The notes under the pieces: generated by a model
The model's database searches: none
Told to the model about the DNA's origin: nothing
What the model saw: the letters and a program-made list of their open reading frames with translations, nothing else
Part shown: piece after piece, positions 3,253-44,951 of the stretch
Numbering within the stretch: position 1 is the stretch's first letter
Layout: every line of letters starts with the position of its first letter
Origin: Acidobacteriota bacterium
GTDB lineage: Bacteria; Acidobacteriota; UBA6911
DNA length: 64,000 nt
Direction of reading: 5' to 3'
Assembly: GCA_016929335.1 (NCBI GenBank)
Contig: JAFGIY010000199.1
Coordinates: 927 to 64,926, forward strand
Made by a program: the position numbers and the translations under genes

Positions 3253-3260
3253 ATTTTACC

Positions 3261-3311: not shown

Positions 3312-3372
3312 GTTCGTATAAGCAAGCTATCTTCAATTTTAATAAGGAATTAGCGCGGTCCGACCCCGATGT

Positions 3373-10541: not shown

Positions 10542-12128
10542 ATGATCGAATTGGAACAAGAAAGAATCCCCGATGAAATCGATTACGAGTCAATAGACAG
10601 AGATGATGAAGACTCGGAGACAGCCGGGATGTATCCGGGATTCATGAATGCGGATTATAAAGCCGGACTCGAATCCGTTCCGGATGAAGACAAGCCGGCT
10701 GGGGAATTGGGGAAAAGCGATTCCTCGGCTGATCCCATCCTCATTTATTATAGAAACCTGAGAAGGTTTCCACTCCTGACGCGAGAACAGGAAGTGACTC
10801 TGGCAAAGAAAATCGAATCCGCAAAGCTGAATATTCTGAGGCTTCTATCTCTCACAACCATTACTACGTTGAAATTAAAGGAAATGGCGGCGGAGCTTCA
10901 GCTTCGTGGATTATCCGTTTCTGCGCCTCGACATGGTGAGGAACCAAAACCGGAAACGGAAGAAGAAACCTCTCTTGAAGAACGAACTCAGATTCGTCTC
11001 CGGCAGATACGCAGAATCATGGCGCGTCTTGAAGGTCTGGAAACCAGGTGCCGGCGAATGCAAAAAAGCCGGCAACAAAAGAAGCCTCGCAATAGCAAAA
11101 TGCCCATAAACGAGGACCGAATTCAAAAGGAACGCGAAGCGATTTTTCGTACGCTCCAGAAATTGGAATTCAGCGAAGCGCAGATCGATGAATTAACCGG
11201 CAGCGTGGCAGAAGCTTGGCATCGGATGGAAAAGGTCCATGCGGCTGTCAGAGAGTTCTCCTATAACAGGGTATCAAATGGCGGATCCTTGCGCAGTGCT
11301 CGGGCCCATCTGAAGGAACTCGAGACCACCTACAACATAAGAGTCGATGATTTGCGAAGAATTGTGACACAGATCAACTCCAGCAAGGCAGAAATGCTGG
11401 AGGCAAAGGACCAGTTCGTGCAGTCCAATTTGCGTCTTGTGTTCAGCATTGCCAAGAAGTATTCCTACCCGACTTTGGATCTTTTGGACCTGGTTCAGGA
11501 AGGGAACATCGGGCTCATGAAGGCGGTTTATAAATTCAACTACCGCCTGGGCCATAAATTCTCAACTTATGCAACATGGTGGATTCGTCAAAGCATCTCA
11601 CGGGCAATCGCGGATCAGGGCAGAACCATCAGAATTCCGGTTCACATGATAGAAGCTATGAATCGTACCCTCAAGGCTTCCAATGAGCTTTCCAAGCGGT
11701 TAGGGCGGATGCACTCCATTCCTGAATTAGCCAGAGAACTCAAGATTCCGGTTTCCAAGATCAGAGATATCCTGCTGGCTGCCCAGGAGCCGGTTTCTCT
11801 GGAGGCGGCGGTCGGAGACAACCCGGATTCATCACTGAATAGATTCGTTGAGGATAAAAACGCCGTATTGCCCGAGAAGAATGCGATGGATCGCAATCTC
11901 GAAGAGGTAACCGATTCTGCTTTGCAGGTGTTGTCGCCGCGCGAGCAGCAGATCGTGCGGATGCGCTACGGCTTGAATGATACCGGAAAGGAGTATACGC
12001 TTCAGGAAGTGGGAGAGGTCTTCCGGGTAACCAGAGAACGGATACGCCAGATAGAAGAAAAAGCGCTGCTGAAACTCCGCAGCCCTCATTCCGCCAATAA
12101 GCTGCTGGACTTTATGAGTAAGAACTGA
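10542..12128 (+). CDS. RNA polymerase sigma-70 family factor, RpoD-like paralogue (group 1/2)
   Basis: The ORF is open from the GTG at 10524; an ATG at 10542 follows GAGGA. Regions 1.2 to 4 are present: [58 protein letters not shown] and [19 protein letters not shown]. The N-terminus is acidic. Confidence 0.9.
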
Positions 12129-18027: not shown

Positions 18028-18056
18028 ACGACCTTCTCCTGTTCTTCATATATTTA

Positions 18057-18236
18057 ACCCGGATTATTCATGAAGCTTCTACTGCGGCGGCGTATCCGGG
18101 CGTGTCTACTGCGTTGCGCTCGGTCGGATTCCTTGACGTACTGTCGAGTACGCCTGCGGAATCCTCGCGTCGCGCGCCTTGTATCCACGCCCGTCTGCGC
18201 CGCCTCGCGACGAACCTTCATGAATATTCCGGGTTA
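18057..18236. repeat. Imperfect palindrome of about 180 nt (multi-stem long hairpin)
   Basis: The outer arms AACCCGGATTATTCATGAAG (18057..18076) and CTTCATGAATATTCCGGGTT (18217..18236) are complementary at 19 of 20 positions. Inner complementary pairs are CCGGGCGTG/CACGCCCG, GGATTCC/GGAATCC and CGTACT-GTCG-AGTACG, centred near 18145. Confidence 0.75.
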
Positions 18237-18244
18237 ACAAGGCG

Positions 18245-28363: not shown

Positions 28364-28521
28364 CCGTTTCGTGTTTCCGGTTTCCCGTTTCCCGTTGAAA
28401 AGCGCGGAGGGCAATGGCGGAGATCCTTCCTGTTCAGTTGTGTGTCTTAATATGGCGCAAACTATCAATTCAGGGTAGGATAAAACCCCAAACGGGGAAC
28501 CGGAAACGGGAAACCGGAAAC
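28364..28521. repeat. Heptamer-repeat hairpin (GTTTCCN arms)
   Basis: The left arm is ccgtttc|gtgtttc|cggtttc|ccgtttc|ccgtt (28364..28396). The right arm is aacgggg|aaccgga|aacggga|aaccgga|aac (28491..28521). 28373..28392 is perfectly complementary to 28502..28521 (20 bp). The right arm ends 17 nt before the ATG at 28539. Confidence 0.9.
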
Positions 28522-28538
28522 TCATATGGGAGGAGAGG

Positions 28539-29171
28539 ATGAAGATCCTTGAAGTAAAGGCTTTAGCGATTCCGGATATCAAGGTAGTGCGATTCGGCAG
28601 ATTCCCCGATCATCGCGGATATTTCGGCGAGCATTTTCGGAAAAGCGATTTCAACACTCACCCGCAAATGGAATTTTTGAGGGGCGTTGACTTTTTTCAA
28701 TGTAATGAAAGCTATTCAAAGAACCGGACTATTCGCGGCCTTCATTTTCAGTGGAATCCCTACATGGGAAAGCTGGTGCGAACCCTGAGCGGGCGGATGA
28801 CGGATTTGGTTCTGGACATCCGCAAAGGATCTCCGACGTTTGGAAAGATTATCGCGTACGATTTGCCCGCTGCCAAAGATGCCGATTTTGGGGAATGGAT
28901 CTGGATTCCTCCCGGCTTCGCTCATGGCAACTATTTCTGTGAAGATTCTCATATCGAATACTTCTGTTCCGGCGAATACAGCCCCGGTTGTGAAGCCGGC
29001 ATCTCCCCCCTTGCTTCCGACTTGGACTGGTCCATGTGCAATTCGAAGCTCAGAAAGGAGTTTGACTCCATTTCCAATGACAATCCGTTGATGACGGATA
29101 AGGACCGAAACGGCCATTCACTTGCTTCCTGGATTTCCAGTCCTAATTCGGATCATTTTATTTTTCGATAA
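28539..29171 (+). CDS. dTDP-4-dehydrorhamnose 3,5-epimerase-like cupin (RmlC family)
   Basis: 210 aa: FPDHRGYFGEHF, RGLHFQ and PPGFAHG. GGGAGGAGAGG precedes the ATG. Confidence 0.8.
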   Translation: MKILEVKALAIPDIKVVRFGRFPDHRGYFGEHFRKSDFNTHPQMEFLRGVDFFQCNESYSKNRTIRGLHFQWNPYMGKLVRTLSGRMTDLVLDIRKGSPTFGKIIAYDLPAAKDADFGEWIWIPPGFAHGNYFCEDSHIEYFCSGEYSPGCEAGISPLASDLDWSMCNSKLRKEFDSISNDNPLMTDKDRNGHSLASWISSPNSDHFIFR

Positions 29172-29271
29172 GGCCCATATGATCTGCCGGAAACACCGGC
29201 GTTGGAATATCCGGGGTTGCCGGCATGATGAATAATTCAACCTGCGGATTTATTTACAAAGAGGAGCCTTC

Positions 29272-30036
29272 ATGTCTCTCCCACAACCTGCTCCCGAAAC
29301 CCTTTCCATCCGAGAAGCCATAGTCCGTAAGGCCCTTGAGGCTGTCTATCAGGGCGCTCATTATCTGACCGGATGCTATGGAGCCTATCCGGAAAGCAGC
29401 GATCCGGTAGTCGGCCGAGAGCTGTATCTTATTGAGGATCCTACCCTTGAAAATCTTGGAGTTCACGCGGCCGAGATACGGCAGCCCAAGGTTTACCGCT
29501 GTGCAGGTCGCTACGAAGCGGCCGGCGGCCGCCCGCTCGATCCCGATATTAGAGCCGACCGCCAGCTGTTAAGGGACTATGAGCTCCATAACTGTGGATC
29601 GCTGCCCGGCCATTACTCCGATATCGGGGGGCTTTATCCGCGCCGCGTTCAGCATCCCACCACATACAAAGACTGGTATGTGCTTGGCGAGAATTGTCAT
29701 AACAAAATGCATTTCGATTGTATCGGTTTTGTAAATTGGGCAGTCAGCCAGGTAGTCGGCCTGCCGATTCAATTTGGCATTCGAATGTGGGCGAACAGCA
29801 ACATCGCTCCCGTGACAGTGGAGGATATACCCTTTACGGAGCTTTTGCCCGGCGATATCCTTACGCGATTGAATTCCACACCGGAGCATATTGCCATCGT
29901 TGGCCACGGTAACAGACTTATTCAGGCGGCCGGTTTTGCTCAGGGAGTGGTTGATACTCCGATTGGCGCCGATTATCAGAAGCATTCCCGAATCACGAAC
30001 CGATGGCTTTTGCGCCCTGTCATCCACAGCAGGTAA
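29272..30036 (+). CDS. Hypothetical protein, possibly an NlpC/P60-like cysteine hydrolase without a signal peptide
   Basis: 254 aa with a GAGGAG RBS. A candidate catalytic Cys sits in FDCIGFVNWAVSQV and a candidate His in GDILTRLNSTPEHIAIVGHG. This resembles the NlpC/P60 Cys...His arrangement. Confidence 0.5.
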   Translation: MSLPQPAPETLSIREAIVRKALEAVYQGAHYLTGCYGAYPESSDPVVGRELYLIEDPTLENLGVHAAEIRQPKVYRCAGRYEAAGGRPLDPDIRADRQLLRDYELHNCGSLPGHYSDIGGLYPRRVQHPTTYKDWYVLGENCHNKMHFDCIGFVNWAVSQVVGLPIQFGIRMWANSNIAPVTVEDIPFTELLPGDILTRLNSTPEHIAIVGHGNRLIQAAGFAQGVVDTPIGADYQKHSRITNRWLLRPVIHSR

Positions 30037-30084
30037 GTTCAGGAACGAGCAAGACTACTCCCGGATTTTACAGTCTGCCGGCTA

Positions 30085-31461
30085 TTGTGTAACTTTCTTC
30101 TTCATGATAAACATGAGGCCGTGGATCTTTTCTCGCAGCGCAAGATTTACACAGTCTACGACATCACATCCGTAATCAAGCGTTCCCTTGATGATCTGGG
30201 CATCGTCTGGATACAGGGGGAGATCTCCAATTTCAAGCGTCATACTTCCGGTCATTTGTATTTTTCTCTTAAGGATTCGCGCGCTCAAATAAAGGCCGCC
30301 TGTTTCAAAAACAACAACATGTATCTGAAATTTCGCCCCGAAGACGGGATGGAGGTTGTCGCTCGAGGGCGGCTGAGCGTGTATGAACCGAGGGGGGACT
30401 ATCAGATAATCGTGGAGTATATGGAGCCCGTCGGGCTGGGCTCACTCCAGCTTGCGTTCGATCAACTGAAAGAAAAGCTTCGCAAAGAGGGTTTGTTCGA
30501 TGAAGCCCGCAAGGTTCCGCTGCCTCTGCTTCCGCGGAAGGTAGGCATTGTCACTTCTCCGACAGGAGCAGCGGTGCGGGATATGCTGAGGATCCTGAAG
30601 CGGCGCAATGCGTCCCTGGACGTACTCCTATTCCCGGTTAAGGTCCAGGGGCAGGGAGCGGCTGAAGAGATCGCGCGGGGGATCCGTTATCTGAACGGCC
30701 GCCGGGATGTGGATGTTATTATCATTGGCCGGGGCGGAGGCTCGATTGAAGATCTCTGGGCGTTTAATGAGGAAATTGTCGCAAGGGCGATTTACGATTC
30801 CGAGCTCCCTCTGATTTCTGCGGTCGGACACGAGGTGGATTTTACGATCTCGGATTTTGTGGCGGATTTGAGAGCTCCGACTCCGTCTGCGGCGGCTGAA
30901 CTGGTATCCGGCGCGCGCGAAGATCTGAGGGTAAGCGTGAATTCTCTTAGAGGAAGGCTTTTTCAGTCGATCCGCATAGGACTGGACCAGCGCCGCCTCC
31001 GGCTCGAACGGCTGGCGCATAACAAGGCATTCACAGTAGCTCCGAACAAGATTCGCGACCTGGAACAGCGATTTGACGAGAGCACTCTGCGGATGACACA
31101 GGCAATGCACCGGTTTGCTCATGAGGTCCGGCATCGGGAACAGATGCTCTCGTCGCGGCTGAGATCGCTTGATCTGCGCCGGTTTATTACTCACAGAAAA
31201 GATCTGGTGGCGCGCGACTACCTGGGCCTGACGTCGGCGATCAGAGTGCTTCTCCATCGGCAGCGGTCCCGATTCGAGCTCGCAGTCGGAAAAATCGACG
31301 CGCTCAGCCCGCTGGCCATTTTAGGACGCGGCTTCGCCCTTTGCCGTGATTCCAAAGGCGCTATCGTCAAGAAGTCCTCCGATGTCGCCGTGGGAGAATT
31401 GGTTCGAGTCACACTGGCCGCAGGCGAACTGGACTGCCGCATTGAACAGATTGACGATTGA
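30085..31461 (+). CDS. xseA: Exodeoxyribonuclease VII large subunit
   Basis: 458 aa: VWIQGEISNFKRHTSGHLYFSLKD, VGIVTSPTGAA, IIIGRGGGSIEDLWAFN and a coiled-coil C-terminal region. The start (TTG at 30085) is uncertain. The last codons (..IDD stop) lie inside the heptamer repeat. Confidence 0.92.
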   Translation: MCNFLLHDKHEAVDLFSQRKIYTVYDITSVIKRSLDDLGIVWIQGEISNFKRHTSGHLYFSLKDSRAQIKAACFKNNNMYLKFRPEDGMEVVARGRLSVYEPRGDYQIIVEYMEPVGLGSLQLAFDQLKEKLRKEGLFDEARKVPLPLLPRKVGIVTSPTGAAVRDMLRILKRRNASLDVLLFPVKVQGQGAAEEIARGIRYLNGRRDVDVIIIGRGGGSIEDLWAFNEEIVARAIYDSELPLISAVGHEVDFTISDFVADLRAPTPSAAAELVSGAREDLRVSVNSLRGRLFQSIRIGLDQRRLRLERLAHNKAFTVAPNKIRDLEQRFDESTLRMTQAMHRFAHEVRHREQMLSSRLRSLDLRRFITHRKDLVARDYLGLTSAIRVLLHRQRSRFELAVGKIDALSPLAILGRGFALCRDSKGAIVKKSSDVAVGELVRVTLAAGELDCRIEQIDD

Positions 31462-31533
31462 CGATTTACGATTGACGATTTTCGAATGGCAGTGGATTCA
31501 AATCGTCAATCGTCAATCCAAAATCGTCAATTG
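31450..31533. repeat. Heptamer-repeat hairpin (ATTGACG/ATTTACG arms), copy 1
   Basis: The left arm is attgacg|attgacg|atttacg|attgacg|atttt. The right arm is aaatcgt|caatcgt|caatcca|aaatcgt|caatt. 31468..31481 is perfectly complementary to 31500..31513. The element spans the xseA stop and ends 14 nt before the xseB ATG. Confidence 0.9.
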
Positions 31534-31546
31534 CCAGGGGGGGGTT

Positions 31547-31795
31547 ATGGAACTGAAGGTGAAGGATTTTGAGTCGGCGCTCAAATCGCTCGAAGACATC
31601 GTCGCCCAGCTTGAAGCGGGCGACCTGACGCTCGATCGTGCTCTGGAGCTTTTTGAAGAAGGCATCAAGGTAAGCCGCTTCTGCAGCTCGAAGCTGGAGG
31701 AAGCGGAGCGAAAAGTTGAAGTACTCGTTAAAACGGCATCCGGAGAAATGAAGGAAATGCCCTTTTCTGAAGATGCCGAGGGGAACGAACCCTGA
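31547..31795 (+). CDS. xseB: Exodeoxyribonuclease VII small subunit
   Basis: The internal ATG of ORF 31346..31795 gives MELKVKDFESALKSLEDIVAQLEAGDLTLDRALELFEEGIKVSRFCSSKLEEAERKVEVL, typical of XseB. The upstream part of that ORF is repeat-derived. Confidence 0.9.
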   Translation: MELKVKDFESALKSLEDIVAQLEAGDLTLDRALELFEEGIKVSRFCSSKLEEAERKVEVLVKTASGEMKEMPFSEDAEGNEP

Positions 31796-31798
31796 CTT

Positions 31799-31886
31799 AA
31801 TTTACGATTGACGATTTACGATTGACGATTAAAAACACTCCGGGGCGCAAATCGTCAATTTTCAATCTTCAATCATCAATCGAAAT
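31799..31886. repeat. Heptamer-repeat hairpin (ATTGACG/ATTTACG arms), copy 2
   Basis: The left arm is aatttacg|attgacg|atttacg|attgacg|att. The right arm is aaatcgt|caatttt|caatctt|caatcat|caatcga|aat. 31821..31830 is complementary to 31850..31859. The element fills the xseB-ispA gap. Confidence 0.9.
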
Positions 31887-31888
31887 CC

Positions 31889-32773
31889 ATGGACATAAGC
31901 ACATACCTGTCGGAATCAAAGAAACTCGTAGATGAGTATTTGATGAAGCTTTTGCCGGCGGAGGGGATGGAACCTCCGACGATTCACAAAGCCATGCGCT
32001 ACTCGGTATTTGCCGGCGGGAAACGTGTGAGGCCGATCCTCGTGCTCGCTTCGGGCGAAAGCCTGAATGGAGACCGCGAGGTTCTCCTGTCGCTGGGTGC
32101 GGCCATCGAAATGATGCATACCTATTCGTTGATCCATGATGATCTGCCTGCACTGGATAACGACGATCTCCGAAGAGGCGTGCCTACCTGCCACAAAGTA
32201 TTCGGCGAAGCCATGGCCATCCTGGCCGGCGACGCACTGTTAACGCGCTGCTATGAGGTCCTGGCTGATCTCCCCAGGCTTTCCGACACTACCCGGCTCA
32301 GCATCATACGCGACATTGCCGCAGCGACAGGCACTATCAACGGAATGATCGGCGGACAGGTTGTCGATCTGGAATCGGAAGGCAAGCCTGTTAATCCTCG
32401 TATCCTGGAATACCTGCATTCCTCCAAAACGGGAGCTTTGCTGAAAGCCTGTGTCCGATGCGGCGCCCTGGCGGCAGGTGCTGATGAAAGGGCTCTGAAT
32501 GCCTTGACGGAGTTCGGCAGCAAGATCGGACTGGTTTTTCAGATTGTGGATGACATTCTTGATATTACTTCCAGCAGCGAAATTCTGGGCAAGACGGCGG
32601 GCAAGGATGAAAAGGCCAAAAAGGCGACCTATCCGGCCTTCTATGGACTGGAGGCATCCAGAAACAAAGCGAATGATCTGGTAGCTCTGGCGCTGGAGGA
32701 TATCCGGGATTTCGGTGAAGAGGCGGAAATCCTGCGCAGCCTTGCCCGATTCATTGTCAGTCGCACTGCATGA
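31889..32773 (+). CDS. ispA: Polyprenyl (farnesyl/geranylgeranyl) diphosphate synthase
   Basis: 294 aa with the first Asp-rich motif LIHDDLPALDNDDLRRG and the second FQIVDDILD. Confidence 0.93.
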   Translation: MDISTYLSESKKLVDEYLMKLLPAEGMEPPTIHKAMRYSVFAGGKRVRPILVLASGESLNGDREVLLSLGAAIEMMHTYSLIHDDLPALDNDDLRRGVPTCHKVFGEAMAILAGDALLTRCYEVLADLPRLSDTTRLSIIRDIAAATGTINGMIGGQVVDLESEGKPVNPRILEYLHSSKTGALLKACVRCGALAAGADERALNALTEFGSKIGLVFQIVDDILDITSSSEILGKTAGKDEKAKKATYPAFYGLEASRNKANDLVALALEDIRDFGEEAEILRSLARFIVSRTA

Positions 32774-32777
32774 ATGG

Positions 32778-33557
32778 ATGAAACGACGTATCGATCAATT
32801 GCTGGTGGAATGTGGATTTGCCGAGAGCCGGCACAAAGCCCAGGCTCTGCTGCTTGCGGGCCGGATTCTGGTAAATGGACAAAAGATTGAGAAGCCCGGC
32901 CAGCAGGTAGATGCAGATGCCGGTATTCGTGTCCTCGGGCAGCTTCGTTTTGTCAGCCGGGCGGGCGGCAAGCTTCAGGCGGCGTTGGATCACTTTCAAA
33001 TCCCAATTGGCGGCCGCGTGTGCGCAGACCTCGGAGCTTCTACGGGCGGTTTCACGGATTGCCTTCTTCAGAACGGCGCAGTCAGAGTGTATGCCTTTGA
33101 TGTAGGACACGGGCAACTGGACTGGAAACTGCAATCTGATCCGAGGGTTGTCGTTCGCGATAAATTCAATGTCCGTAATCTCAGTCCGGCCGATCTGCCC
33201 GCCGATATCACGTTCATCTGTATCGATCTTTCCTTTATCTCCGTCACCAAGATTCTGCTCCCGCTGAAAGCCTGTCTCCTCGAAAGAAAATATTTAACAG
33301 ACGGCCTGACGCCGGAACCCCCCGTTGATATTGTCGTCCTGGTCAAACCCCAGTTTGAAGTCGGCAAGGGCGAAGTAGGGAAGGGAGGCATTGTACGGGA
33401 TCCGGGGAAACGCCTCGAAGCGCTGAAAACGGTTGAAAATTTTTCGGGCCGGGCCGGATATCGAATCGTCGGCAATATTTCTTCGCCGATAGCCGGTGCG
33501 GAGGGAAATAGGGAGTTTTTGTTGTACCTTCAGATTATAAAGGGATTATTATCCTAG
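32778..33557 (+). CDS. tlyA: TlyA-family rRNA (cytidine-2'-O)-methyltransferase
   Basis: The preferred ATG at 32778 (MKRRIDQLLVECGFAESRHKAQALLLAGRILVNG, S4 domain) lies just after the ispA stop. The SAM motif DLGASTGGFTDCLLQNGA is present. Confidence 0.9.
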   Translation: MKRRIDQLLVECGFAESRHKAQALLLAGRILVNGQKIEKPGQQVDADAGIRVLGQLRFVSRAGGKLQAALDHFQIPIGGRVCADLGASTGGFTDCLLQNGAVRVYAFDVGHGQLDWKLQSDPRVVVRDKFNVRNLSPADLPADITFICIDLSFISVTKILLPLKACLLERKYLTDGLTPEPPVDIVVLVKPQFEVGKGEVGKGGIVRDPGKRLEALKTVENFSGRAGYRIVGNISSPIAGAEGNREFLLYLQIIKGLLS

Positions 33558-33559
33558 CC

Positions 33560-34420
33560 ATGAACTCTCCAATACGAAGCATCGGCATGATTTTCAAAAA
33601 GCAGGATGCCCGCATTCAGGGCATAGCGGGCGATATCATTCCCTGGCTGCAATCACGGGGTGTCGATGTTTTTCTTGACCGGGCGCTGGCCGATCTGTGC
33701 CGGGTTAAGGCATGCTTTGCCGTGCCTGAAGAATTCGTAAGACAAGTGGATATCGTGAGTGTTTTCGGTGGCGACGGGACGCTGCTTTATGTGGCTCGGC
33801 TCATCGGCGCAACAGGAGTCCCCATACTCGGCGTCAATCTCGGATCACTCGGCTTTCTTACGGAAGTGAAACTGGATGAGATGCATGCGGCTTTTGAAGG
33901 TTTGATTTCCGGGCAATACCGGCTGGAAGACCGCATGCTTCTGAATGTCGAGGTTGTGCGGAATGGCGAATCCATAGCGCAATACCTGGCGCTGAACGAT
34001 GCCGTTATAAACAAGGGCGCATTAGCCCGTATCATCGACCTGGAAGTCAGTGTGAACTCGCAGCAGGTGCTTTATACGCGCGCTGATGGACTGATTATCT
34101 CTTCGCCAACCGGTTCCACCGCCTATTCTCTTTCAGCCGGCGGCCCCATCTTGTATCCGACGCTGGAAGCTTTCATTATCACCCCCATATGCCCGCATGC
34201 ACTGGCTAATCGTCCGATCGTTATTCCTGACCGGGATTCCGTCGGCGTCTGTTTACGCCACGGCACGGATGTCATGCTTACGGTCGATGGTCAGGTCGGG
34301 ATGCCGCTGAAGCAGCAGGACAACCTTTTCATCCGCAGAGCTGAATCAACATTGCGGTTGGCGTTGCCCTTCGGAAGCACTTTTTTCAAACTGTTGCGCG
34401 AAAAGCTGAGATGGGGATAG
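33560..34420 (+). CDS. nadK: NAD(+) kinase
   Basis: 286 aa: GGDGTLL, NLGSLGFL and SSPTGSTAYSLSAGGPI. Confidence 0.95.
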   Translation: MNSPIRSIGMIFKKQDARIQGIAGDIIPWLQSRGVDVFLDRALADLCRVKACFAVPEEFVRQVDIVSVFGGDGTLLYVARLIGATGVPILGVNLGSLGFLTEVKLDEMHAAFEGLISGQYRLEDRMLLNVEVVRNGESIAQYLALNDAVINKGALARIIDLEVSVNSQQVLYTRADGLIISSPTGSTAYSLSAGGPILYPTLEAFIITPICPHALANRPIVIPDRDSVGVCLRHGTDVMLTVDGQVGMPLKQQDNLFIRRAESTLRLALPFGSTFFKLLREKLRWG

Positions 34421-34440
34421 GAAGGATTCGGAATTCGAAT

Positions 34441-35073
34441 CTAGAATTTCAAATCCTGAATTAAATCGATTCCGGATCGGCGGCACAGTTTTTCGAAAGC
34501 TGAAATCGGGAATCCCACGATATTGAAATAACAGCCCTCAATCCTGTCGATGAAAAGGGATGCGTAGCCTTGAATGCCGTAAGCTCCGGCTTTGTCTCTA
34601 TATTCTCCGCTTTTCAGATACCAGTCGATCTCGGCTGAAGACAGCCGGCGAAAGCGAACGCGGGTCCGGCCGAACGTGGTACGGGCGCGATTCCGCGCGC
34701 AATCCAGAAGACAGATGCCGGTAATCACCTCATGCCATCGGCCGCTGAGCCGGCGGATCATGTGCCGGGCTTCCGTCGGGATTTCAGGTTTTCCCAGGAT
34801 ATCATCTCCCAGCACGACGATTGTATCGGCGCTGAGTATCCGGCCGGACCGATGCCTTCCGGATACTTCCCGGGCCTTAAAGCGAGCCAGTCGCACAGCG
34901 TAGTTCGAAGGCGTTTCCCGTGGACGACGCGGAGGTTCGATCAGGCCGCATGGATCGATGACGAAAAGCAGTCCCAGGCCGCTCAAAATTTCGCTGCGGC
35001 GCGGGGAAGCAGAGGCCAGGATCCATTTTGGCTTCGTTCGGCTTCCCCGTATCACTTTTCCGGAATTCTTCAC
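34441..35073 (-). CDS. maf: Maf-family nucleoside triphosphate pyrophosphatase
   Basis: 210 aa: ILASASPRRSEIL, ADTIV, DKAGAYGIQG. Confidence 0.93.
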   Translation of the reverse strand: MKNSGKVIRGSRTKPKWILASASPRRSEILSGLGLLFVIDPCGLIEPPRRPRETPSNYAVRLARFKAREVSGRHRSGRILSADTIVVLGDDILGKPEIPTEARHMIRRLSGRWHEVITGICLLDCARNRARTTFGRTRVRFRRLSSAEIDWYLKSGEYRDKAGAYGIQGYASLFIDRIEGCYFNIVGFPISAFEKLCRRSGIDLIQDLKF

Positions 35074-35082
35074 GGATATTCT

Positions 35083-38000: not shown

Positions 38001-38556
38001 TGTTCATAACCTTGCGGGTGCCGCTTACCGTAGAATCGTCTTCCATGCCGTAAGCCGTCTGAACGTTTGGCTGATAAATTCCAAGAGGAAGAGGATTGCG
38101 GTCGATGAGCGGCAGAGCCTGCATATCGCGCGGCGAAAAAGCCCCGGAATTTGTTGAATCATTGATTTTCGGAGCAGCAGCGGGCGGCACTTCCTTATCA
38201 ATAGCCGAGACTTCGAAACTGAAGTTGTCAATAAGAGTATCCGGCAAGTAGATCCTGACATGCCGGTGGACTACATCTTTGAATGCCTTGGATTTGGCCG
38301 TGACGGTATAAATCCCCGGAGGCAAAGCCAGAAATCGGTAATATCCCTCGCTGTCGCTGATGGTCTCCATTTGGCGCCCGCTCGCTTCATCGACGGCCGC
38401 AAGAATAACACCTGTCAGAGGCTCGCCGGTCGGATCCCAGACGATTCCCTCAAGCCGTGCCGATGCGGTTTGGGCTCCAAGGGGAGCTGCAAACGCGGAT
38501 AGGATTAGAATGGCAATGAAAAAACTAATAATGCTGGGAGAGGCAAATCGAGTCAC
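35083..38556 (-). CDS. TonB-dependent receptor with an N-terminal carboxypeptidase-regulatory-like domain
   Basis: 1157 aa with a signal peptide and a CarboxypepD_reg-like segment (ARLEGIVWDPTGEPLTGV...GYYRFLALPPGIYTV). A long beta-barrel region follows, with a C-terminal aromatic end (...ALRLQF). Confidence 0.9.
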   Translation of the reverse strand: MTRFASPSIISFFIAILILSAFAAPLGAQTASARLEGIVWDPTGEPLTGVILAAVDEASGRQMETISDSEGYYRFLALPPGIYTVTAKSKAFKDVVHRHVRIYLPDTLIDNFSFEVSAIDKEVPPAAAPKINDSTNSGAFSPRDMQALPLIDRNPLPLGIYQPNVQTAYGMEDDSTVSGTRKVMNSIMMDGLSITDPVSPSMQSSFFTPNPESISTLQIVTSAAKAEFGGAGGGHFILATPSGTKSFTGSVYDYFRNKRLNANDFFNNTLHYPRPGLASNIYGVTLSGPIGGNSLFFINFEGNHTDQQLIRERAVLTETARAGLFRWYAPDDLTRDSSTVKSFDIAANDPRGLGIDPQITAALAKVPEPNDFTVGDGLNIAGYRFDALADIRQKNAAARIDHYLNANHQLFVRFNYGDADSTDSENGAEMSYPNELNGTYVNNSWAVAVGSDWAISPYTVNEFRVGYIQPKIELKRPARLSTPMLLANSWTNPADPSFPRSYKVPAFEIADNLSRSMNRHSLKFGISYRKSTQTITDYDGVYPNVTFGRDHGNIPDISVGPEEQFEISTEDREWFERIYNNLLGRIESVNQTFNSTLTSALPAGTARIRDYSTSRFSAFIQDDWKIRRNLTLNLGMRLETMTSPKEKNGLQSVLDKAADLGPASEISDFNVAARDSWYSTKWNNFAPRFGFAWDVMGSGNTVLRGAYGIYFSHLHGGITDFVDKNSYGFIQTATLYPNTGGGDFRLSDGIPLPAQPSPVSLTPAATRSTSIAVLNPELKTPRVEQFSLTLEKKLWGLLFDLGYSATRGKDLFQYVNLNQTKTRGDFLQAYKELKQYRDEGTPVPDSNTLLRIFGYPLAAFEALDGANFDSGEAGIAANELDLNCFGDYAAAGVSDFYIRNFPQFDGFLYGSNSAESWFDSFRLGIRKATNNLHFQTYYTWSKSLDTISSDGNTYVNPSDSFQPEIDKAPSDFHRTHVWNAVFDYALPYGRTRNPDSETPKWIDWVFGGWNLGSIMLWESGQRFSVYSGRQNLFADVSSLANLEGKRTIGTIYKFSGNIYWFNPDQALLFTHPDAGEAASSGRNTFVGPRYFNMDAVIHKRFHIGEKRYVQFRAEAYNVFNNTHFGLPNTDIDSSIFGIIRRTQGSPRSLQVALRLQF

Positions 38557-38949
38557 CCCACACCTCCTCTTTGTGAAAAATCCGGACCTGCAACGAGCAA
38601 ACCCGCTTTCAATAGAACCTTATACGAATCCCATGTACAAATGCGCAGTCAATTTTTACATTAAGTGCGATCTTTTGTCGATAGTTGCAAAGCATTTGGG
38701 CTTGATCCTCCCAATGATGTCCCAAATAATCTTCACGAAGTTTATCCCGAAGTTGGCCGAACGTCGTATATAATGAGCGCCGATTTTGAGATGTAATGCT
38801 TAATGTCCCATTCTGGGGAAGCGAAGGAGGGCACGGCTCTGAGTTTTGCCGTGAATCCCAGCCAGTGCTCTTTCGTCAGAATGGATAATATCTGGAGCTG
38901 CGAACTTATTCTGCCGCCGCCGCGAGCGGCGCTTATTTTGGAGAGCCGT

Positions 38950-41900
38950 ATGCGTTTCCGGTCCTTTATTTTATTATTATGGCCTGTGCTTTTTCTTGTC
39001 CCCTACGCCGCAGCACAGAAACGGGTCGTAGCAACCGTTAATCCAAACGCCGCTGCGCTGAACAGTAATGCGGATATCTTTAATCCTGCAACCCGCACTC
39101 TTACTCCTGTGACCGGAATGCTTACGGGCCGCGAACAGAATGTTGCCGTCCGACTGGCGAGCGGGCGGGTGCTGATCGCCGGCGGATATAACAACCGTCA
39201 TCTGGTTTCTGCGGAGCTGTACGATCCGGAGACTGGAACTTTTGAGGAAACGGACGATATGGTTTCGGCTCGAAGCGGGGCCGCAGCTGCGCTGCTGCAG
39301 GGGGGGACGGTTCTCCTTGCCGGCGGCTATAACGGGCAACAATACCTTTCATCGGCGGAAATTTATGATCCCGCAACTGAGACTTTCGGCCCTGCCGGCG
39401 CTTCTCTGTTGACGGCGCGTCAGAATGCCACGGCCACGCGCTTGAACAACGGGACCATACTCATTGTCGGCGGCTACGACGGATCCGCATTCCTGAATTC
39501 AAGCGAGATATATAATTCTGCGGTCAGAGAGTTTTCTTATACGGATGGATTTTTAGCCGATGCCCGAGAATGGCATACGGCAACACTGCTGTCCGATGGA
39601 AGGGTTTTAATCACCGGCGGATGCAACAACGTCGAAAGCGGCAAAGTGGTATGCGATGAGTATCTCTCAAGCGCGGAAATATATGATCCGGATTCCGACG
39701 CGTTCATATCCACCGGATCCATGACCGCTCCCCGGGCCAATCATACCGCCACCTTATTGCCGAACGGAAAGGTCCTGATCGCCGGCGGATGGAACGGCAC
39801 GAATACGCTGGCCTCAGCCGAAGTTTTTGATCCGGAAACGGAAACCTTTACGTCGGTCGGGAATCTGGCGTTTGCGCGAATCAACCACACCGCCTCGCTG
39901 CTGTCTGATGGGAAAGTATTAATCGCCGGCGGAAAAGCGGATCAGCATCTCGACAGCCTGGAGCTTTTTGATCCGGCGGCCAATTCGTTCACACTTCTTC
40001 CTGCCGCCATGACCATGCCGAGATCGATGCATTCGGCCATCGCGCTTGCTGACGGACGGATCATGCTTGTCGGCGGCGAAAACTCCGAACTGCTGTATTT
40101 CGATGTGAATTCGCAAAGCATCGCCGACAACGTTTCTCCCAATATAATTGCCTCCTCCGATTCAAAAACCGCATTCGTCCCTTATACCGGGTCCGGGGTT
40201 GTTGCGGCATTTTCGACGGAAACCGGAGCCGTGATCAAAAAGATCATCACCGGGGGCAAGCCGGCGTTTATGACAGAGCTGCCCGATGGAGAGACTCTGG
40301 CCGTTGTCTCCGTTCTCGACAACCGGATCTTCACGATTGATATGAAGGATATGCTGCTGAAAAACACCTATAGTTTTAACGGCTCTTTTGGATTCGGCAG
40401 CCTCCTGACCCTCTCTCCGGACGGAGGAACAGGCTACATCTCTTCAACTTCTACCGGCAGCGTCATCAAATTCGACATGGAAACCGGGAATGAATTGGGA
40501 CGGCTGACAAACATGCAGGCGCCTGCCCAGATAACGATAACAAAGGACGGAAATACTCTGCTCATTGTAGACACAATGGCAAACAACGTTGTGATTGCCG
40601 ACGCTTCGGCGATGACGGTTAAGGCGAGAGTGTTGCCTCTGGAAGATTATTCTGCAGCAAGTTTCACAATTTTCAACAAAGCCGTGTTGAATGCGGACGA
40701 AACAATGGCCGTGATAGGGAGTCAGGATTCCAACAGCTCGTCGGACTGTGTGGTCAATGCCGCTTTTGTGTTTGACCCGGCTACCGGAGAGATCCTTGAA
40801 ACGGCGGCCATCGGCTGTATCCCGGGATACACCACATTTCTGCCCACCGGCACTTACTGGTTAATTCTCGGCCAGGGAAATATCTCCCAGATCCCATCGT
40901 GGGCGCCTGAATCTTCCTTCGTAAACAAATACACTCTAGGCACGCCGATGGGTTCCGCAAATGTCATCATTACGAAGGATGCAAAATATGCCTATTATGC
41001 TCTCAGCAGCGCGGATGTGGTGGTCCAGCAGGATATCGGCACACGAGCGATCGTCGGATCTTTCAGTGTAGGCGATGATCCTGATAAGGTGCTCGATCAG
41101 GCTTCAAGCCTTGCCGTCACTCCCGATGAAAAGACGATGATCGTCCTGAATTTTTCGAGCAATGAACTGGACCTTCTGGGCGATGCCGCGGTGTTCAGAA
41201 ATACAAAATACATCAGCCAGCAGAACCAGTTCACGGGTCTGTCCATGGTGAATGTGTCCGATACTCCGGCAACACTGACCATCACGGCCTTTTTAAACAG
41301 CGGCATCCTCGCCGCGGCCAACGATATAGTCAATCCGGTTTCCCTGGAAGTGGGGCCCAATTCCCAGGCTTCAGTTGATTTATCGAGCCTCTACGATTTT
41401 GATCCTGATGACACGAATGAAGGACGCCTCTTTATTCAATCCGATAATCCCGGAGTCACGGGATTCTCCATGACAGGGAAAGTTCGCGCCGATTTCCTGC
41501 AGTCCCGTGTGGTTGATATGTTTGCGTTTCCTCTGCAAACCGATTATCGCGAATCACTGCGCAATTGGATCATTCCCGAGATTCCTCAATCAGATGATGC
41601 CAAGATTGAACTCAACTTCTTCAATCCGAATTACAATAGCTCGCCCTATACCGTGACCCACTACGGGACCGACGGCACGGAGCTCGAGACAAAGAGGGAC
41701 CTTACCGTTAATGCCTCCGTCCGAGAAACCAAGGCGCTCTCGGACCTGCTCACGACCGCACAGGCCGGTCGGGTGCTCATCGTCGGCGGGAACGATCTCA
41801 AATCGACATGGGACAGCGCTTCCACATTCAGTGTCAGTGCCAAGACCTTTACCAGTACGACCCGCCTTCTAAACTTCGCTCGCCATGGCCATGCCGTCTC

Positions 41901-43638
41901 ACAGCTTTCCAATCAGAAAGTCCTTATCACCGGAGGGAAGCGCGGCACCGCGGTTACAAAAAGCGCCGAACTCTACTACCCGATAGAAGGCTTCTTCCGC
42001 CCGACTGCAGGTACCATGCGCACACAACGCTACCGGCATACCTCAACAAGACTAGCCGGCGGGAAGGTGTTGTTGGCGGGCGGGCAAAGTTCCCGTTCTT
42101 TCAATAAGACAGCGGAGCTGTACGATCCGAACGAAGATGCTTTTGAGCCGACGGCGGGGGATATGACTTCGGCTCGAGATGCGCATACGGCCACGCTTTT
42201 GCCCGATGGAAGGGTTCTCATCGTCGGCGGCATTGACGGCATATCGGTATCGGCAACGGCGGAACTGTACCAGCCGGAAACATCGCTGTTCACACTCACC
42301 GGAAGAATGACTGCCGGCCGCGCCTTCCATACGGCTGTTCTGCTCCCCTCCGGGAAAGTGCTTATTGCCGGCGGCTATAACGGCAGCTATCTGGACTCTG
42401 CCGAGCTTTATGATCCGGAAACAGGCCTTTTCACTTCGGCGGGTTCCATGACTGGCGCTAGAAGCAATCATACGGCCACGCTGCTTTCAAACGGTACCGT
42501 CCTGATTGCCGGAGGAAGAGACTCCGAGGGGTCCCTTAATACGGCTGAAATCTACGATCCGCTGGCCGGGACCTTCCTGCCCACCGAAGGCACAATGGTT
42601 TCAACCCGCCGCATGCATACCGCTACGCTTCTCGATGATGATACGGATGGTATCGATGACAAGGTGCTGATTACGGGTGGATTTGGAATGATTTTGGACG
42701 ATGATGAAGAGGATGACGACGATCCTGATCAGGATGGACTGGATGAGGAGCATGTCTTAAAGACGGCGGAACTGTACGATCCCGTGACGCGGCAATTTTC
42801 CCGAACTACGGGCGACCTTTCGCAGGCAGTTCAGGTCCAGGCTGCTATTCTCCTTCAGTCCAACGATCAGGGCTACCTCCGAGTCCAATCGGATCTTGGA
42901 TTGCTTTTCAGCGAGATCTATTCCATCGGCGGGGCTTCCGCATCCATCAACGGCATCGATATCGACAAGCATACCGGAGTAACCAGGATCTATTCTCCGC
43001 TTTTTGTTATTAAGCCGGACTTCGCGACCGCAGTGAATATCATTAACGCGAATCAGGACAGCGAAGCATTCATCACAATCCGCCTGCATGCAGAGGACGG
43101 AAGCCTGTTGTCCTCGCCGGTTGTCTGGCTGATCTCTCCCAACGGCCAGCTGAAAGGCGATCTGTGGGATATTTTCCATAACGATACAAGCCTGTTGAAC
43201 CGGACAGGGTGGATTGAAGTAACCAGCACAGTGGACAAGGTAGTAGGAACCGTTACTTTTACTGATCCGGATGATACCATCCGGACCAGCATCCAATTGT
43301 CCGGATTCCCAATGAGCCGTTTCCTATTTCCCCTGGTCTCTGAGGACGCAACTTATCAAACGGAGATATCGTTGCTCAATACCGGCGACCAGACCGCCTC
43401 TGTCCTTCTGGAACTCTGGGGGACAGCAGGTACGCTGGATGCATTTGCCAACGTTTCGCTCCCGCCAAACAGGCGGCTGACCGGATTTTTGGGCGACATC
43501 TTTCCCGACATTCAGCCGCATCTCACCGGCAACGTTCGCATTATTTCTGACCGGCCGTTGCATGGTTTTGCGATCCTGTCGGCCCGTGATCTCACATTTA
43601 TTACTGCCGAACCGCCGGTCCCATATCCGGGGCAATGA
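38950..43638 (+). CDS. Giant secreted multi-propeller protein: Kelch propeller, YVTN-like propeller, beta-sandwich modules, second Kelch propeller, beta-sandwich modules
   Basis: The ORF is open from 38803. The preferred ATG at 38950 (MRFRSFILLLWPVLFLVPYAAAQ, signal peptide) follows GGAGAG. There are two blocks of seven repeats with the pattern AR..HTATLL.DG.VLI.GG. The central region has YVTN-like blades (ITKDGNTLLIVD, VTPDEKTMIVLN). Confidence 0.85.
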   Translation: MRFRSFILLLWPVLFLVPYAAAQKRVVATVNPNAAALNSNADIFNPATRTLTPVTGMLTGREQNVAVRLASGRVLIAGGYNNRHLVSAELYDPETGTFEETDDMVSARSGAAAALLQGGTVLLAGGYNGQQYLSSAEIYDPATETFGPAGASLLTARQNATATRLNNGTILIVGGYDGSAFLNSSEIYNSAVREFSYTDGFLADAREWHTATLLSDGRVLITGGCNNVESGKVVCDEYLSSAEIYDPDSDAFISTGSMTAPRANHTATLLPNGKVLIAGGWNGTNTLASAEVFDPETETFTSVGNLAFARINHTASLLSDGKVLIAGGKADQHLDSLELFDPAANSFTLLPAAMTMPRSMHSAIALADGRIMLVGGENSELLYFDVNSQSIADNVSPNIIASSDSKTAFVPYTGSGVVAAFSTETGAVIKKIITGGKPAFMTELPDGETLAVVSVLDNRIFTIDMKDMLLKNTYSFNGSFGFGSLLTLSPDGGTGYISSTSTGSVIKFDMETGNELGRLTNMQAPAQITITKDGNTLLIVDTMANNVVIADASAMTVKARVLPLEDYSAASFTIFNKAVLNADETMAVIGSQDSNSSSDCVVNAAFVFDPATGEILETAAIGCIPGYTTFLPTGTYWLILGQGNISQIPSWAPESSFVNKYTLGTPMGSANVIITKDAKYAYYALSSADVVVQQDIGTRAIVGSFSVGDDPDKVLDQASSLAVTPDEKTMIVLNFSSNELDLLGDAAVFRNTKYISQQNQFTGLSMVNVSDTPATLTITAFLNSGILAAANDIVNPVSLEVGPNSQASVDLSSLYDFDPDDTNEGRLFIQSDNPGVTGFSMTGKVRADFLQSRVVDMFAFPLQTDYRESLRNWIIPEIPQSDDAKIELNFFNPNYNSSPYTVTHYGTDGTELETKRDLTVNASVRETKALSDLLTTAQAGRVLIVGGNDLKSTWDSASTFSVSAKTFTSTTRLLNFARHGHAVSQLSNQKVLITGGKRGTAVTKSAELYYPIEGFFRPTAGTMRTQRYRHTSTRLAGGKVLLAGGQSSRSFNKTAELYDPNEDAFEPTAGDMTSARDAHTATLLPDGRVLIVGGIDGISVSATAELYQPETSLFTLTGRMTAGRAFHTAVLLPSGKVLIAGGYNGSYLDSAELYDPETGLFTSAGSMTGARSNHTATLLSNGTVLIAGGRDSEGSLNTAEIYDPLAGTFLPTEGTMVSTRRMHTATLLDDDTDGIDDKVLITGGFGMILDDDEEDDDDPDQDGLDEEHVLKTAELYDPVTRQFSRTTGDLSQAVQVQAAILLQSNDQGYLRVQSDLGLLFSEIYSIGGASASINGIDIDKHTGVTRIYSPLFVIKPDFATAVNIINANQDSEAFITIRLHAEDGSLLSSPVVWLISPNGQLKGDLWDIFHNDTSLLNRTGWIEVTSTVDKVVGTVTFTDPDDTIRTSIQLSGFPMSRFLFPLVSEDATYQTEISLLNTGDQTASVLLELWGTAGTLDAFANVSLPPNRRLTGFLGDIFPDIQPHLTGNVRIISDRPLHGFAILSARDLTFITAEPPVPYPGQ

Positions 43639-43639
43639 C

Positions 43640-43945
43640 TTGGAGCCTTTATACGGAGTTCTATTTTCTCTGTTCAAAGAAAAGCCGAACTACGGGCAAT
43701 GGGTAGTGGCCTGCCTTAAAGGCGCCTGGCCAAAGCTCCTGGGCGACAGACTGGCCGCTGTCTGCAGCCCAGTCCACTTCGAAAATGCCAATCTCCGGAT
43801 CGAGGTATGCAGTCCGGAGTGGGATCAGGCCCTGATGAGCGTTCGGGAGACGTTGCTTGACAAGCTGCGGGCTGCAACTGCCAATGAGGTCAGGACGATT
43901 ACTTTCAGTCGGCAGTCGGCAGTCGGCAGTCGGCAGTATCGATAA
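43640..43945 (+). CDS. DUF721 (DciA-like) domain protein
   Basis: This is the frame of ORF 43562..43945. A probable TTG start at 43640 lies directly after the upstream stop. The product matches the DUF721 pattern: LKGAWPKLLGDRLAAVCSPVHFENANLRIEVCSPEWDQALMSVRETLLDKL. The last 12 codons are encoded by CAGTCGG repeats. Confidence 0.55.
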   Translation: MEPLYGVLFSLFKEKPNYGQWVVACLKGAWPKLLGDRLAAVCSPVHFENANLRIEVCSPEWDQALMSVRETLLDKLRAATANEVRTITFSRQSAVGSRQYR

Positions 43946-44267
43946 TTTAATATTTGCGAATTTGCGGTTGGCTCTACAACTACTTTCAGTCGGCAGTCGG
44001 CAGTCGGCAGTGGGCAGTATCGATAATTTAATATTTGCGAATTTACGGTTGGCTCTACAACTATTGCATCAGCACTACCGACTGCAGACTAACGACTGCC
44101 GACTGCTGAAATCGAGCTTTTCGGAATAAGCAAGCGCCCTGGCCGCCATCACCAAGCCACTGCCGACTGCCGACTGCCGACTACCGACTGCTGAAATCGG
44201 GCTTTTCGGAATAAGCAAGCGCCCTGGCCGCCATCGCCAGGCCACTGCCGACTGCCGACTAACGACT
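43901..44267. repeat. Compound repeat: two 81-nt direct units carrying (CAGTCGG)4, followed by two 85-nt direct units plus a partial third carrying the complementary (CCGACTG)n tracts
   Basis: Units 43901..43981 and 43982..44062 differ at 2 positions. Units 44073..44157 and 44158..44242 are near-identical, and a partial third unit starts at 44243. The heptamer tracts of the two sets are reverse complements. Confidence 0.9.
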
Positions 44268-44336
44268 ATTATTTGCAGAGAAGCGGTCCATATGGTAACT
44301 TAACGCTTTATATTCAAGGCTTGTGCGGAGGATGAA

Positions 44337-44606
44337 TTGTCACTTACGGTAGAAAAAAAGACGGAGATCGTCAATACATATAAAACACACCCGACCGATA
44401 CCGGGTCGCCTGAAGTGCAGATCGCCATTTTGAGCGAAAAGATTGCCTATCTGACAGAGCATTTTAAAACTCATGCGAAGGACCACCATTCTCGAAGAGG
44501 GCTCCTGAGAATGGTTGGCAAACGGCGCCGTCTTCTCGACTATTTGAAGGATAAGGATATCGCAAGATATCGGACTGTGATCGAGAAGCTTGGTATCAGA
44601 AAGTAG
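44337..44606 (+). CDS. rpsO: 30S ribosomal protein S15
   Basis: 89 aa: ...[49 protein letters not shown]. It starts at TTG, with GGAGG 8 nt upstream. Confidence 0.97.
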
Positions 44607-44819
44607 ATTAGTACAGGCTTTTGGGGATCCGCTCCTCTAAGGGTCTGCCCGGTGCTCGAGATTGTGAATGGGGACGAACAGAAGCGCCGGATTTTTAAGC
44701 AACAAGCATTGCCCAGATCTCGACAGGGAATTTTCCCACGCCCCAAAAAGTGAGTGCTGATGAGACGGGTGAGCATTTTAGGTTTCAGTCAATTCAACTA
44801 ATCACCGGGGGCCGGCTGG

Positions 44820-44906
44820 ATTGTGAATTATGAGTTATGAGTTAAAGGTTATTGAGTGATAATCCTTAACTCAGGACTCATAATCATAATTCCTGGTTCA
44901 TAATTC
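44820..44906. repeat. Heptamer-repeat hairpin ((A/G)TTATGA arms) in the rpsO-pnp leader
   Basis: The left arm is attgtga|attatga|gttatga|gttaaagg. The right arm is ccttaactcaggactcataatcataattcctggttcataattc. The two arms are largely complementary around a 15-nt loop. Confidence 0.85.
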
Positions 44907-44951
44907 CCGCCTTTCAGAACCCCCGGACAAATTCAACAGCAGGAGGAAAAA

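Follow-up and report, generated by a model that had tools for sequence, protein, structure and literature searches.

Why should five gaps between genes in one short piece of a bacterial genome carry hairpins of the same layout, when the 7-nucleotide (nt) unit that builds their arms differs among them? The question is raised by a stretch of 64,000 nt, here called the window, from an Acidobacteriota bacterium of the GTDB lineage UBA6911 (GenBank assembly GCA_016929335.1, contig JAFGIY010000199.1, positions 927 to 64,926), in which tandem heptamers and their inverted counterparts form five elements that we name E1–E5. On a somewhat better than even footing, we propose that these loci are gene-less members of a widespread, fast-evolving class of palindromic elements, akin to the short tandemly repeated repetitive (STRR) sequences of cyanobacteria and to the intervening sequences of 23S ribosomal RNA (rRNA), and that they are probably sites of RNase III cleavage or stabilization in operon transcripts. 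A member of this class would consist of two inverted arrays, each with three to five copies of a short unit, usually of 7 nt, which elsewhere bracket a gene of the PF05635/TIGR02436 four-helix-bundle family. The class would also take in STRR hairpins and repeat-armed 23S intervening sequences, because the same arms, ATTKACG included, bracket four-helix-bundle genes.

Five hairpins of one layout

The first-pass annotation of the window, made from its letters alone, had listed five loci with tandem 7-nt arrays and inverted arms, and Tandem Repeats Finder, a lag scan and an inverted-repeat finder recovered all of them. The lag scan, a check that annotation had proposed, returned 11 period-7 arrays, all between 28366 and 44844, compared with 0.05 in block shuffles; across the window there were no arrays of period 3–6 or 8–13. 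The 11 arrays pair up as five inverted-arm elements, and the observation is real and statistically unambiguous. Array size clusters at three to five units, and at least four different units coexist within 17 kb of this one genome. The parts of the elements are as follows.

E1 left arm, 28364..28396: GTTTCNN × 4.7, in the divergent gap between a family 2 glycosyltransferase (GT2) gene (−) and rfbC (+)
E1 spacer, 28397..28489: about 93 nt, itself predicted to pair internally
E1 right arm, 28490..28521: AAACSGG × 4.6, stopping 17 nt short of the rfbC ATG (28539)
E2 left arm, 31449..31481: ATTGACG/ATTTACG × 4.6, holding the last codons of xseA and its TGA stop (31459-31461)
E2 right arm, 31500..31533: CGTCAAT-type units, about 14 nt 5′ of the xseB ATG (31547)
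E3 left arm, 31799..31830: ATTTACG/ATTGACG × 4.4, beginning 4 nt past the xseB stop
E3 right arm, 31850..31886: decayed CGTCAAT-type units, about 3 nt 5′ of the ispA ATG (31889)
E4 left half, 43900..44063: 81-nt unit × 2, each opening with CAGTCGG × 4.6 (43906-43937, 43987-44018)
E4 right half, 44073..44268: 85-nt unit × 2.3, each opening with a complementary ACTGCCG array
E4 right-half arrays: 44074-44106, 44159-44191, 44244-44268
E5 hairpin, 44811..44907, + strand: in the rpsO–pnp gap, 45 nt upstream of the pnp ATG; TTATGAG unit

Tandem Repeats Finder placed the arrays at 28364-28396 and 28490-28521 in E1 (4.6–4.7 copies), 31449-31480 and 31501-31531 in E2, 31800-31830 and 31850-31881 in E3, and 43906-43937, 43987-44018, 44074-44106, 44159-44191 and 44244-44260 in E4. 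The E5 array (44824-44844, 3.0 copies) has the weakest periodicity of the five elements: its left arm reads GAATTAT GAGTTAT GAGTTAA and is followed by a unique apical stem and then by the right arm. Long stems are real, with 20 base pairs (bp) or more in window elements, and the earlier figure of 20 perfect bp proved conservative, as the arms of E4 are perfectly complementary over up to 24–26 nt.

As RNA, the elements are predicted to fold far more stably than shuffled sequence, with z scores of −2.9 to −8.8 relative to shuffles (0–1 of 100–200 shuffles equally stable). In the predicted fold of E4, the left–right pair L2:R1 is nested within L1:R2, and R3 is unpaired. A test based on G–U pairs and on the stability of sense and antisense strands gave a mixed result, with E1 and E5 favouring sense (−40.1 versus −32.2 kcal/mol in E5), E3 and E4 antisense and E2 neither. 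Promoter-like matches are absent from E1–E4 and show no excess over shuffles in the region; the sole match inside an element is a weak one (9/12) in E5, at 44856-44884.

Orthologous sites keep the layout and swap the unit

For E1–E3, we compared the window with syntenic loci found through relatives of xseB (L375, L378, L382 and L385) and with L002. Percentages below are identities to the window in the DNA of xseB.

Window: GT2/rfbC GTTTCCC; xseA/xseB ATTKACG; xseB/ispA ATTKACG
L375 (88%): E1 not covered; E2 CGTMATT right arm, where the contig begins; E3 AATGACG
L378 (78%): E1 AGTTCCC; E2 AATKACG; E3 AATKACG
L382 (81.5%): E1 GTTTCCS; E2 AATKACG; E3 AATKACG
L385 (79%): E1 without heptamer hairpin; E2 stump; E3 empty
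L002 (71%): E1 not covered; E2 empty; E3 empty

From the window to its relatives, E2 and E3 change together from ATTKACG/CGTMAAT to AATKACG/CGTMATT, each unit of the four arms shows the compensating switch from CAAT to CATT, and the E1 unit passes from GTTTCCC in the window to AGTTCCC in L378. Both arms of an element, and neighbouring elements as well, thus change in all of their units together, and the layout outlives the sequence. The E1 spacer of about 93 nt shrinks to 16 nt in L378 and about 24 nt in L382. Between genomes, the elements are 43–63% alignable, compared with 75–80% identity in the adjacent non-coding flank, and the loops at orthologous sites cannot be aligned. Within L382, E2 and E3 are 86% identical, loop included, as against about 60% for orthologous elements between genomes. 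Such patterns suggest that the elements evolve in concert or are replaced again and again, while their layout stays. The first-pass annotation had argued that one ordinary mobile sequence would not keep its layout while its unit changed, and L375, L378 and L382, with their retained hairpins, different units and unalignable loops, bear this out.

The same comparison answers the question, raised with the original description, of whether occupied sites are empty in close relatives: the E3 site is empty in L385 and L002, and the E2 site holds a stump in the former and nothing in the latter. The elements turn over fast, their copy number changes, and sites are gained and lost between relatives. The earlier suggestion of a generating process, of structural selection, or of both is supported in its core by the orthologous sites, which do not choose between the two; both seem to act, with rapid turnover at E1–E4 and purifying selection at E5.

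Two further observations concern these contigs. L378 has an extra GATTCGA heptamer hairpin (6870-6992) in the gap between the NAD kinase gene and maf, where the window has a 20-nt gap (34421-34440). Contigs L375-L377, L380 and L381 all begin, within their first 20–90 nt, inside the xseA/xseB element, so the repeats break short-read assemblies.

Heptamer arrays across Acidobacteriota

A PNPase-anchored genome scan supplied 80 Acidobacteriota loci from 80 genomes (1.37 Mb in total), and here too period 7 is the dominant non-coding period, with 71 arrays compared with 3–14 for periods 4, 5, 8, 10 and 11; arrays of period 6, 9 and 12 are coding repeats. An inverted partner lies within 400 nt of 28 of the 71 period-7 arrays, compared with 0–2 arrays for other periods that are not multiples of three. 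With the window included, 53 of 82 arrays are intergenic or overlap gene ends, in sequence of which about 10% is intergenic. No preference for operon-internal gaps was detectable with crude gene calls, and the arms in the acidobacterial sample enclose no gene apart from xseB, which E2 and E3 bracket.

The units are diverse and at the same time not arbitrary. Among 51 independent loci, 14 locus pairs share a unit, compared with 2.3 expected and a maximum of 11 in 500 draws; the vocabulary recurs, and within it ATTKACG forms a widespread family. Further instances of ATTGACG are found in L003 and L043, and CAGTGGT is present in L001, L003 and L046. Other acidobacterial lineages (L032, L046 and L054) have different heptamer hairpins in the rpsO–pnp gap, and L017 has two period-7 arrays just 5′ of pnp. 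A TGACCAA array in L017 (12188-12212) has the complement of a classical STRR unit.

Arms shared with four-helix-bundle genes

The first-pass annotation had mentioned heptamer arms flanking four-helix-bundle genes, and we found such arms both in metagenomes and on plasmids. A scan of metagenomes for (ATTKACG)×3 matched at least 120 contigs. Among the matches listed, 53 elements have the polarity ATTKACG...CGTMAAT and 8 the reverse order, and spacers are bimodal, at 8–116 nt or 383–532 nt. The long-spacer class encloses an open reading frame (ORF) of 117–133 amino acids that matches PF05635 (E about 1e-15 to 1e-17) and TIGR02436 (E about 3e-22). ATTKACG arms surround such genes in L091, L103, L139, L181, L114, L128, L201-205 and L206-215, with the same polarity as in the window, and in two of the cassettes, P0058 in an lpxI...gnd operon and P0083 in a cdsA/dxr gap, the arrays adjoin start codons as they do in the window.

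Other units accompany the same gene family. A second four-helix-bundle subfamily is flanked by 9-nt TTGGTYNRA arrays; at one locus (L353, L354 and L356, about 1570-1740), the 9-nt array that lies downstream of the gene is longer in some samples than in others, which shows that repeat number varies within populations. Ten annotated plasmid four-helix-bundle genes stand between short tandem arrays, the majority heptameric and the majority inverted, in Nostoc punctiforme (two plasmids), N. flagelliforme, Planktothrix, Gloeocapsa, Chlorohelix, Anabaena, Treponema, Bernardetia and Pseudanabaena; their units differ from gene to gene, except that Gloeocapsa and Chlorohelix both have TTTTAGA. The statement thus holds for the ATTKACG cassettes of metagenomes and for arrays in Nostoc, Planktothrix, Gloeocapsa, Chlorohelix and Treponema. 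The family annotated as ‘23S rRNA intervening-sequence protein’ is itself very large, with 7,995 matches among 8,000 candidates scored with one query.

We considered whether the unit is recognized per protein subfamily and rejected this idea: proteins that are 75% identical have different units (RGTCGGA and AATTCGC), and proteins that are 41% identical share one. Pattern scans of IMG/VR with CAGTCGG, GTTTCCS and ATTKACG returned 17, 32 and 88 stretches, mostly unpaired arrays with no four-helix-bundle gene nearby, so the other units of the window could not be tied to that gene; the four-helix-bundle profile had no match in IMG/VR. Literature searches found no paper joining four-helix-bundle or TIGR02436 genes with heptanucleotide repeats, and a single paper, on Coxiella (PMC4990558), that joins ‘heptameric repeat’ with intervening-sequence terms.

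Several of the repeat-armed genes on plasmids lie within defence operons (L371, L367, L368 and L369): between cas2 and cas1 in Anabaena cylindrica, between DISARM drmD and BREX pglX in Planktothrix, and between DUF1156 and a Swt1-type HEPN gene in Gloeocapsa and Chlorohelix. Metagenome contig L124 has a CAGTCGG-like array (GTCGGCA GCCGGCA GCAGGCA GTCGGCA, 7800-7830) as well as an ATTKACG hairpin (11981-12061), which indicates that the E4 unit recurs elsewhere.

The rpsO–pnp hairpin

E5 is unlike the other elements in that it is conserved, in the window and in three further genomes (L001-L003). Most pairs of its central stem are identical in all four genomes and compensatory changes occur at 4 of 30 pairs; the apical stem differs among genomes yet stays paired, and the flanking spacer is barely alignable. 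In Escherichia coli, an RNase III-cut hairpin in the rpsO–pnp leader serves PNPase autoregulation. E5 has what such a leader would show, a long conserved stem on the sense strand between rpsO and pnp, upstream of pnp, and differs from the E. coli leader in having no sequence relationship with it, no Rfam match and a partly heptamer-built structure. By this analogy, E5 is a candidate pnp regulatory hairpin.

Neighbouring genes

The genes around the elements, named from Pfam, are those for a GT2 glycosyltransferase, rfbC, NlpC/P60, xseA, xseB, ispA, a 1611-amino-acid Kelch protein, DciA, rpsO and pnp. E1 lies in the GT2/rfbC gap, E2 in xseA/xseB, E3 in xseB/ispA, E4 in dciA/rpsO and E5 in rpsO/pnp. 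The start codons of rfbC, xseB and ispA are each 4–17 nt away from an arm. As had been noticed at first pass, arrays adjoin start and stop codons and supply the last codons of xseA and of a DUF721 gene, which is dciA (PF05258). Both genes end inside an array: the XseA C terminus ...CRIEQIDD* is encoded within the left arm of E2, and the DciA C terminus ...FSRQSAVGSRQYR* is a read-through of the first array in the left arm of E4.

Rfam, at gathering thresholds, has no family anywhere in the window. The window contains no rRNA, and the elements sit between protein-coding genes rather than in helix 25 or 45 of 23S rRNA. The closest PNPase matches are metagenome-assembled genomes of Acidobacteriota, at about 80% identity; exact-protein look-ups with the window XseA and PNPase returned no record, and a genome scan with DciA found no relative.

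Between rfbC and xseA the window has an NlpC/P60-family gene (29272-30036); in L378, L382 and L385 xseA directly follows rfbC, which suggests that the gene was inserted in this lineage. Eight consecutive G (31537-31544) stand directly 5′ of the xseB start, beside the right arm of E2; relatives have six. The end of the Kelch-repeat gene (38803-43638) is overlapped for 77 nt by the listed dciA ORF (43562-43945), so that dciA probably starts further downstream. The window also has two inverted repeats that are not heptameric, at 3260-3312 and 18054-18237; one is a 26-nt palindrome with a 1-nt spacer and the other has 26-nt arms 132 nt apart.

Comparison with known systems

The elements are of a known kind of heptamer palindrome, STRR-like and intervening-sequence-like, that had not previously been noted for Acidobacteriota in the literature searched. 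The first-pass annotation knew of no description for such a genome, and our literature search likewise found no paper pairing Acidobacteria with heptanucleotide repeats. Its statement that heptanucleotide STRRs are established in heterocystous cyanobacteria is well founded: STRR heptamer hairpins occur between the co-transcribed hupS and hupL and upstream of hoxW, with proposed roles in transcript stability or translational coupling (PMC2670836). The window elements resemble them in their tandem 7-nt units, in having several unit types per genome and in the ability to form hairpins in intergenic positions between presumably co-transcribed genes, and in N. punctiforme inverted heptamer arrays flank four-helix-bundle genes. 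They differ in their acidobacterial host and in units unlike the named STRR consensus sequences. To our knowledge, concerted unit switching at orthologous sites has not been described for STRRs.

The second close parallel is provided by 23S intervening sequences with an S23p ORF, found in Coxiella, Leptospira and Xanthomonas. That of Coxiella has a 28-bp terminal stem, tandem GACAGAT heptamers whose copy number varies between strains, and a four-helix-bundle ORF, and its stem is cleaved by RNase III in vitro (PMC4990558). Shared with the window are an inverted-repeat stem (about 28 bp there) and tandem heptamers in the arms, the number of which also varies between relatives of the window; their gene family is, moreover, enclosed by ATTKACG arms in metagenomes. 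The window elements differ in having no ORF and in lying between protein-coding genes instead of in 23S helix 25 or 45.

Paired sites in Geobacter metallireducens are similar in layout: three to five tandem repeats of 7–9 nt are paired on opposite strands at variable distance, in several classes per genome, in intergenic positions that include gaps within operons such as proB–proA (Aklujkar et al. 2009, PMC2700814). They were described from sequence alone and read as ‘global regulator binding sites’ on DNA for IHF/HU-like proteins (PMC2700814). The window shares the three to five tandem repeats paired on opposite strands in intergenic gaps; the Geobacter sites differ in that some classes have 8- or 9-nt units. 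TAACTGA direct heptamers, common to Beggiatoaceae, cyanobacteria and Bacteroidetes (MacGregor 2015, PMC4679880), are likewise intergenic, often stop a few nt before a start codon and share a unit among distant phyla, and acidobacterial L022 has one such direct array (TAACTGA × 4.7, 11511-11543); unlike the window elements, they are nearly always direct (1 inverted set of 170) and have a single dominant unit. Repetitive extragenic palindromes, their mosaic clusters (REP/BIME) and miniature inverted-repeat transposable elements (MITEs) are also short, multicopy, intergenic palindromes, often in operons. They keep a fixed sequence, however, whereas elements of the window type have periodic arms, no conserved interior and no target-site duplications.

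Competing explanations

The main rival account, which we find unlikely on balance, holds that the elements are functionless by-products: slippage would favour 7-nt units, template switching at quasi-palindromes would build and erode inverted arrays in tolerant gaps, and nearby four-helix-bundle genes would be passengers or coincidence. It fits the rapid gain, loss and remodelling between close relatives, the lack of a gap-type preference, the decayed arms of E3, the antisense-favouring wobble pairs of E3 and E4 and the array-length polymorphism between samples, and it is in keeping with a survey, as summarised in PMC4679880, in which heptanucleotides were reported to outnumber other long simple repeats in most prokaryotic genomes covered. 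This neutral account explains turnover. It fails to account for the retention of both sequence and structure by E5 in four genomes in which the flanks are not conserved, the shared vocabulary (14 pairs where 2.3 are expected), the polarity bias of 53 to 8 among the matches listed, or the repeated, phylum-spanning association with one gene family, and the joint unit switch of E2 and E3 also speaks against it. Less probable still is the view that the arrays are iteron-like rows of DNA or RNA sites for an oligomeric protein, with the inverted pair joining two protein assemblies; candidates would be global-regulator or IHF/HU proteins of the Geobacter type, following the proposal made there (PMC2700814), or the pentameric four-helix-bundle protein itself. 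Arrays of three to five units, a vocabulary common to loci and genomes, and a link to a family whose solved members are homopentameric rings, as PMC4990558 reports citing Lin 2006, would all suit such sites. At least four units nevertheless coexist within 17 kb of one genome, 75%-identical proteins go with different units and 41%-identical ones with the same unit, and no four-helix-bundle gene was seen in 1.4 Mb of acidobacterial sequence holding dozens of arrays.

It is very improbable, and already largely refuted, that the elements are ordinary MITEs or the decayed remains of one, mobilized by a transposase that takes the arms for its terminal inverted repeats. The inverted terminal arms, the presence or absence of elements in relatives, the contigs that break inside an element and the bimodal sizes, reminiscent of autonomous and miniature copies, speak for it. 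Target-site duplications are nevertheless lacking at 29 ATTKACG elements (3.14 nt versus 3.27 expected) and none is visible at E1–E5; 24 short ATTKACG hairpins have no interior sequence in common, the one gene found between arms encodes a 120-amino-acid helical-bundle protein rather than a transposase, and the unit changes in place at orthologous sites. The outcome named at first pass as one that would overturn the idea, that all copies are decayed versions of one MITE with target-site duplications, is thus not what we find. We give equally little credence to intrinsic terminators or attenuators between genes. Stable GC-containing stems do stand right after the stop codons at E2, E3 and E4, but no T-run follows any of the five elements, terminator-like sites are not in excess (19 versus 18.3 expected in a terminator scan) and none coincides with an element; E1, moreover, is in a divergent promoter region, and in other genomes elements lie within tight operons (cdsA–dxr and lpxI–gnd).

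Several results count against the reading that we prefer, that of gene-less elements of an STRR-like and intervening-sequence-like class. For E3 and E4 the antisense strand gives the better fold, and for E2 neither strand does. Neither the window nor the 80 acidobacterial loci nor the close relatives yielded a four-helix-bundle gene in a PF05635 search; for this organism, the link to the class would run through shared arms only, and through those of E2 and E3, as the CAGTCGG, GTTTCCS and TTATGAG units were not found beside a four-helix-bundle gene. The identity of the four-helix-bundle proteins does not predict their unit. Divergent and convergent gaps hold hairpins roughly in proportion to their abundance, as would be the case for an element that is neutral or selfish. 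Mirroring of variant units in the two arms does not exceed chance (32 versus 29.8 expected, with the observed value reached by 153 of 1,000 shuffles), and strict arm-on-arm templating is therefore not supported.

Proposed mechanism

On the preferred reading of gene-less class members, unit changes would be driven by slippage together with gene conversion or replacement among arrays of the same family, and not by the transposition of an unchanging sequence. With the Coxiella intervening sequence as a model, the elements may be co-transcribed with the flanking genes and fold as stems of 20–35 bp, which could serve as RNase III substrates and so uncouple or stabilize the cistrons on either side. 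Such stems might also mask the region just 5′ of the next start codon. E5 would then be a copy fixed by selection as a hairpin of the pnp 5′ leader.

A bolder version, which we consider unlikely, is that heptamer hairpins, STRRs, repeat-armed 23S intervening sequences and stand-alone PF05635 genes are a single phylum-spanning, self-renewing class whose arms are actively rewritten by templating. Both arms and neighbouring elements would be rewritten, so that the palindromic layout persists while the unit is replaced; the rewriting might involve an Avd-like pentameric four-helix-bundle protein with a polymerase or reverse transcriptase, and hosts might occasionally domesticate a copy, as in the pnp leader.

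Implications

The tandem-heptamer hairpin architecture is common in Acidobacteriota. It matters for annotation, as the elements rewrite the ends of genes (xseA and dciA) and break assemblies. The main value of the findings is comparative, and lies in the concerted unit switching seen in relatives and in the tie between the short hairpins and four-helix-bundle gene cassettes, whose arms they share. If all of these are one class, two questions follow: whether RNase III processes transcripts at the stems and operon expression is shaped in this way, and what homogenizes the arrays. Close relatives offer a natural series in which a hairpin is held at one site as every unit in both of its arms is swapped.

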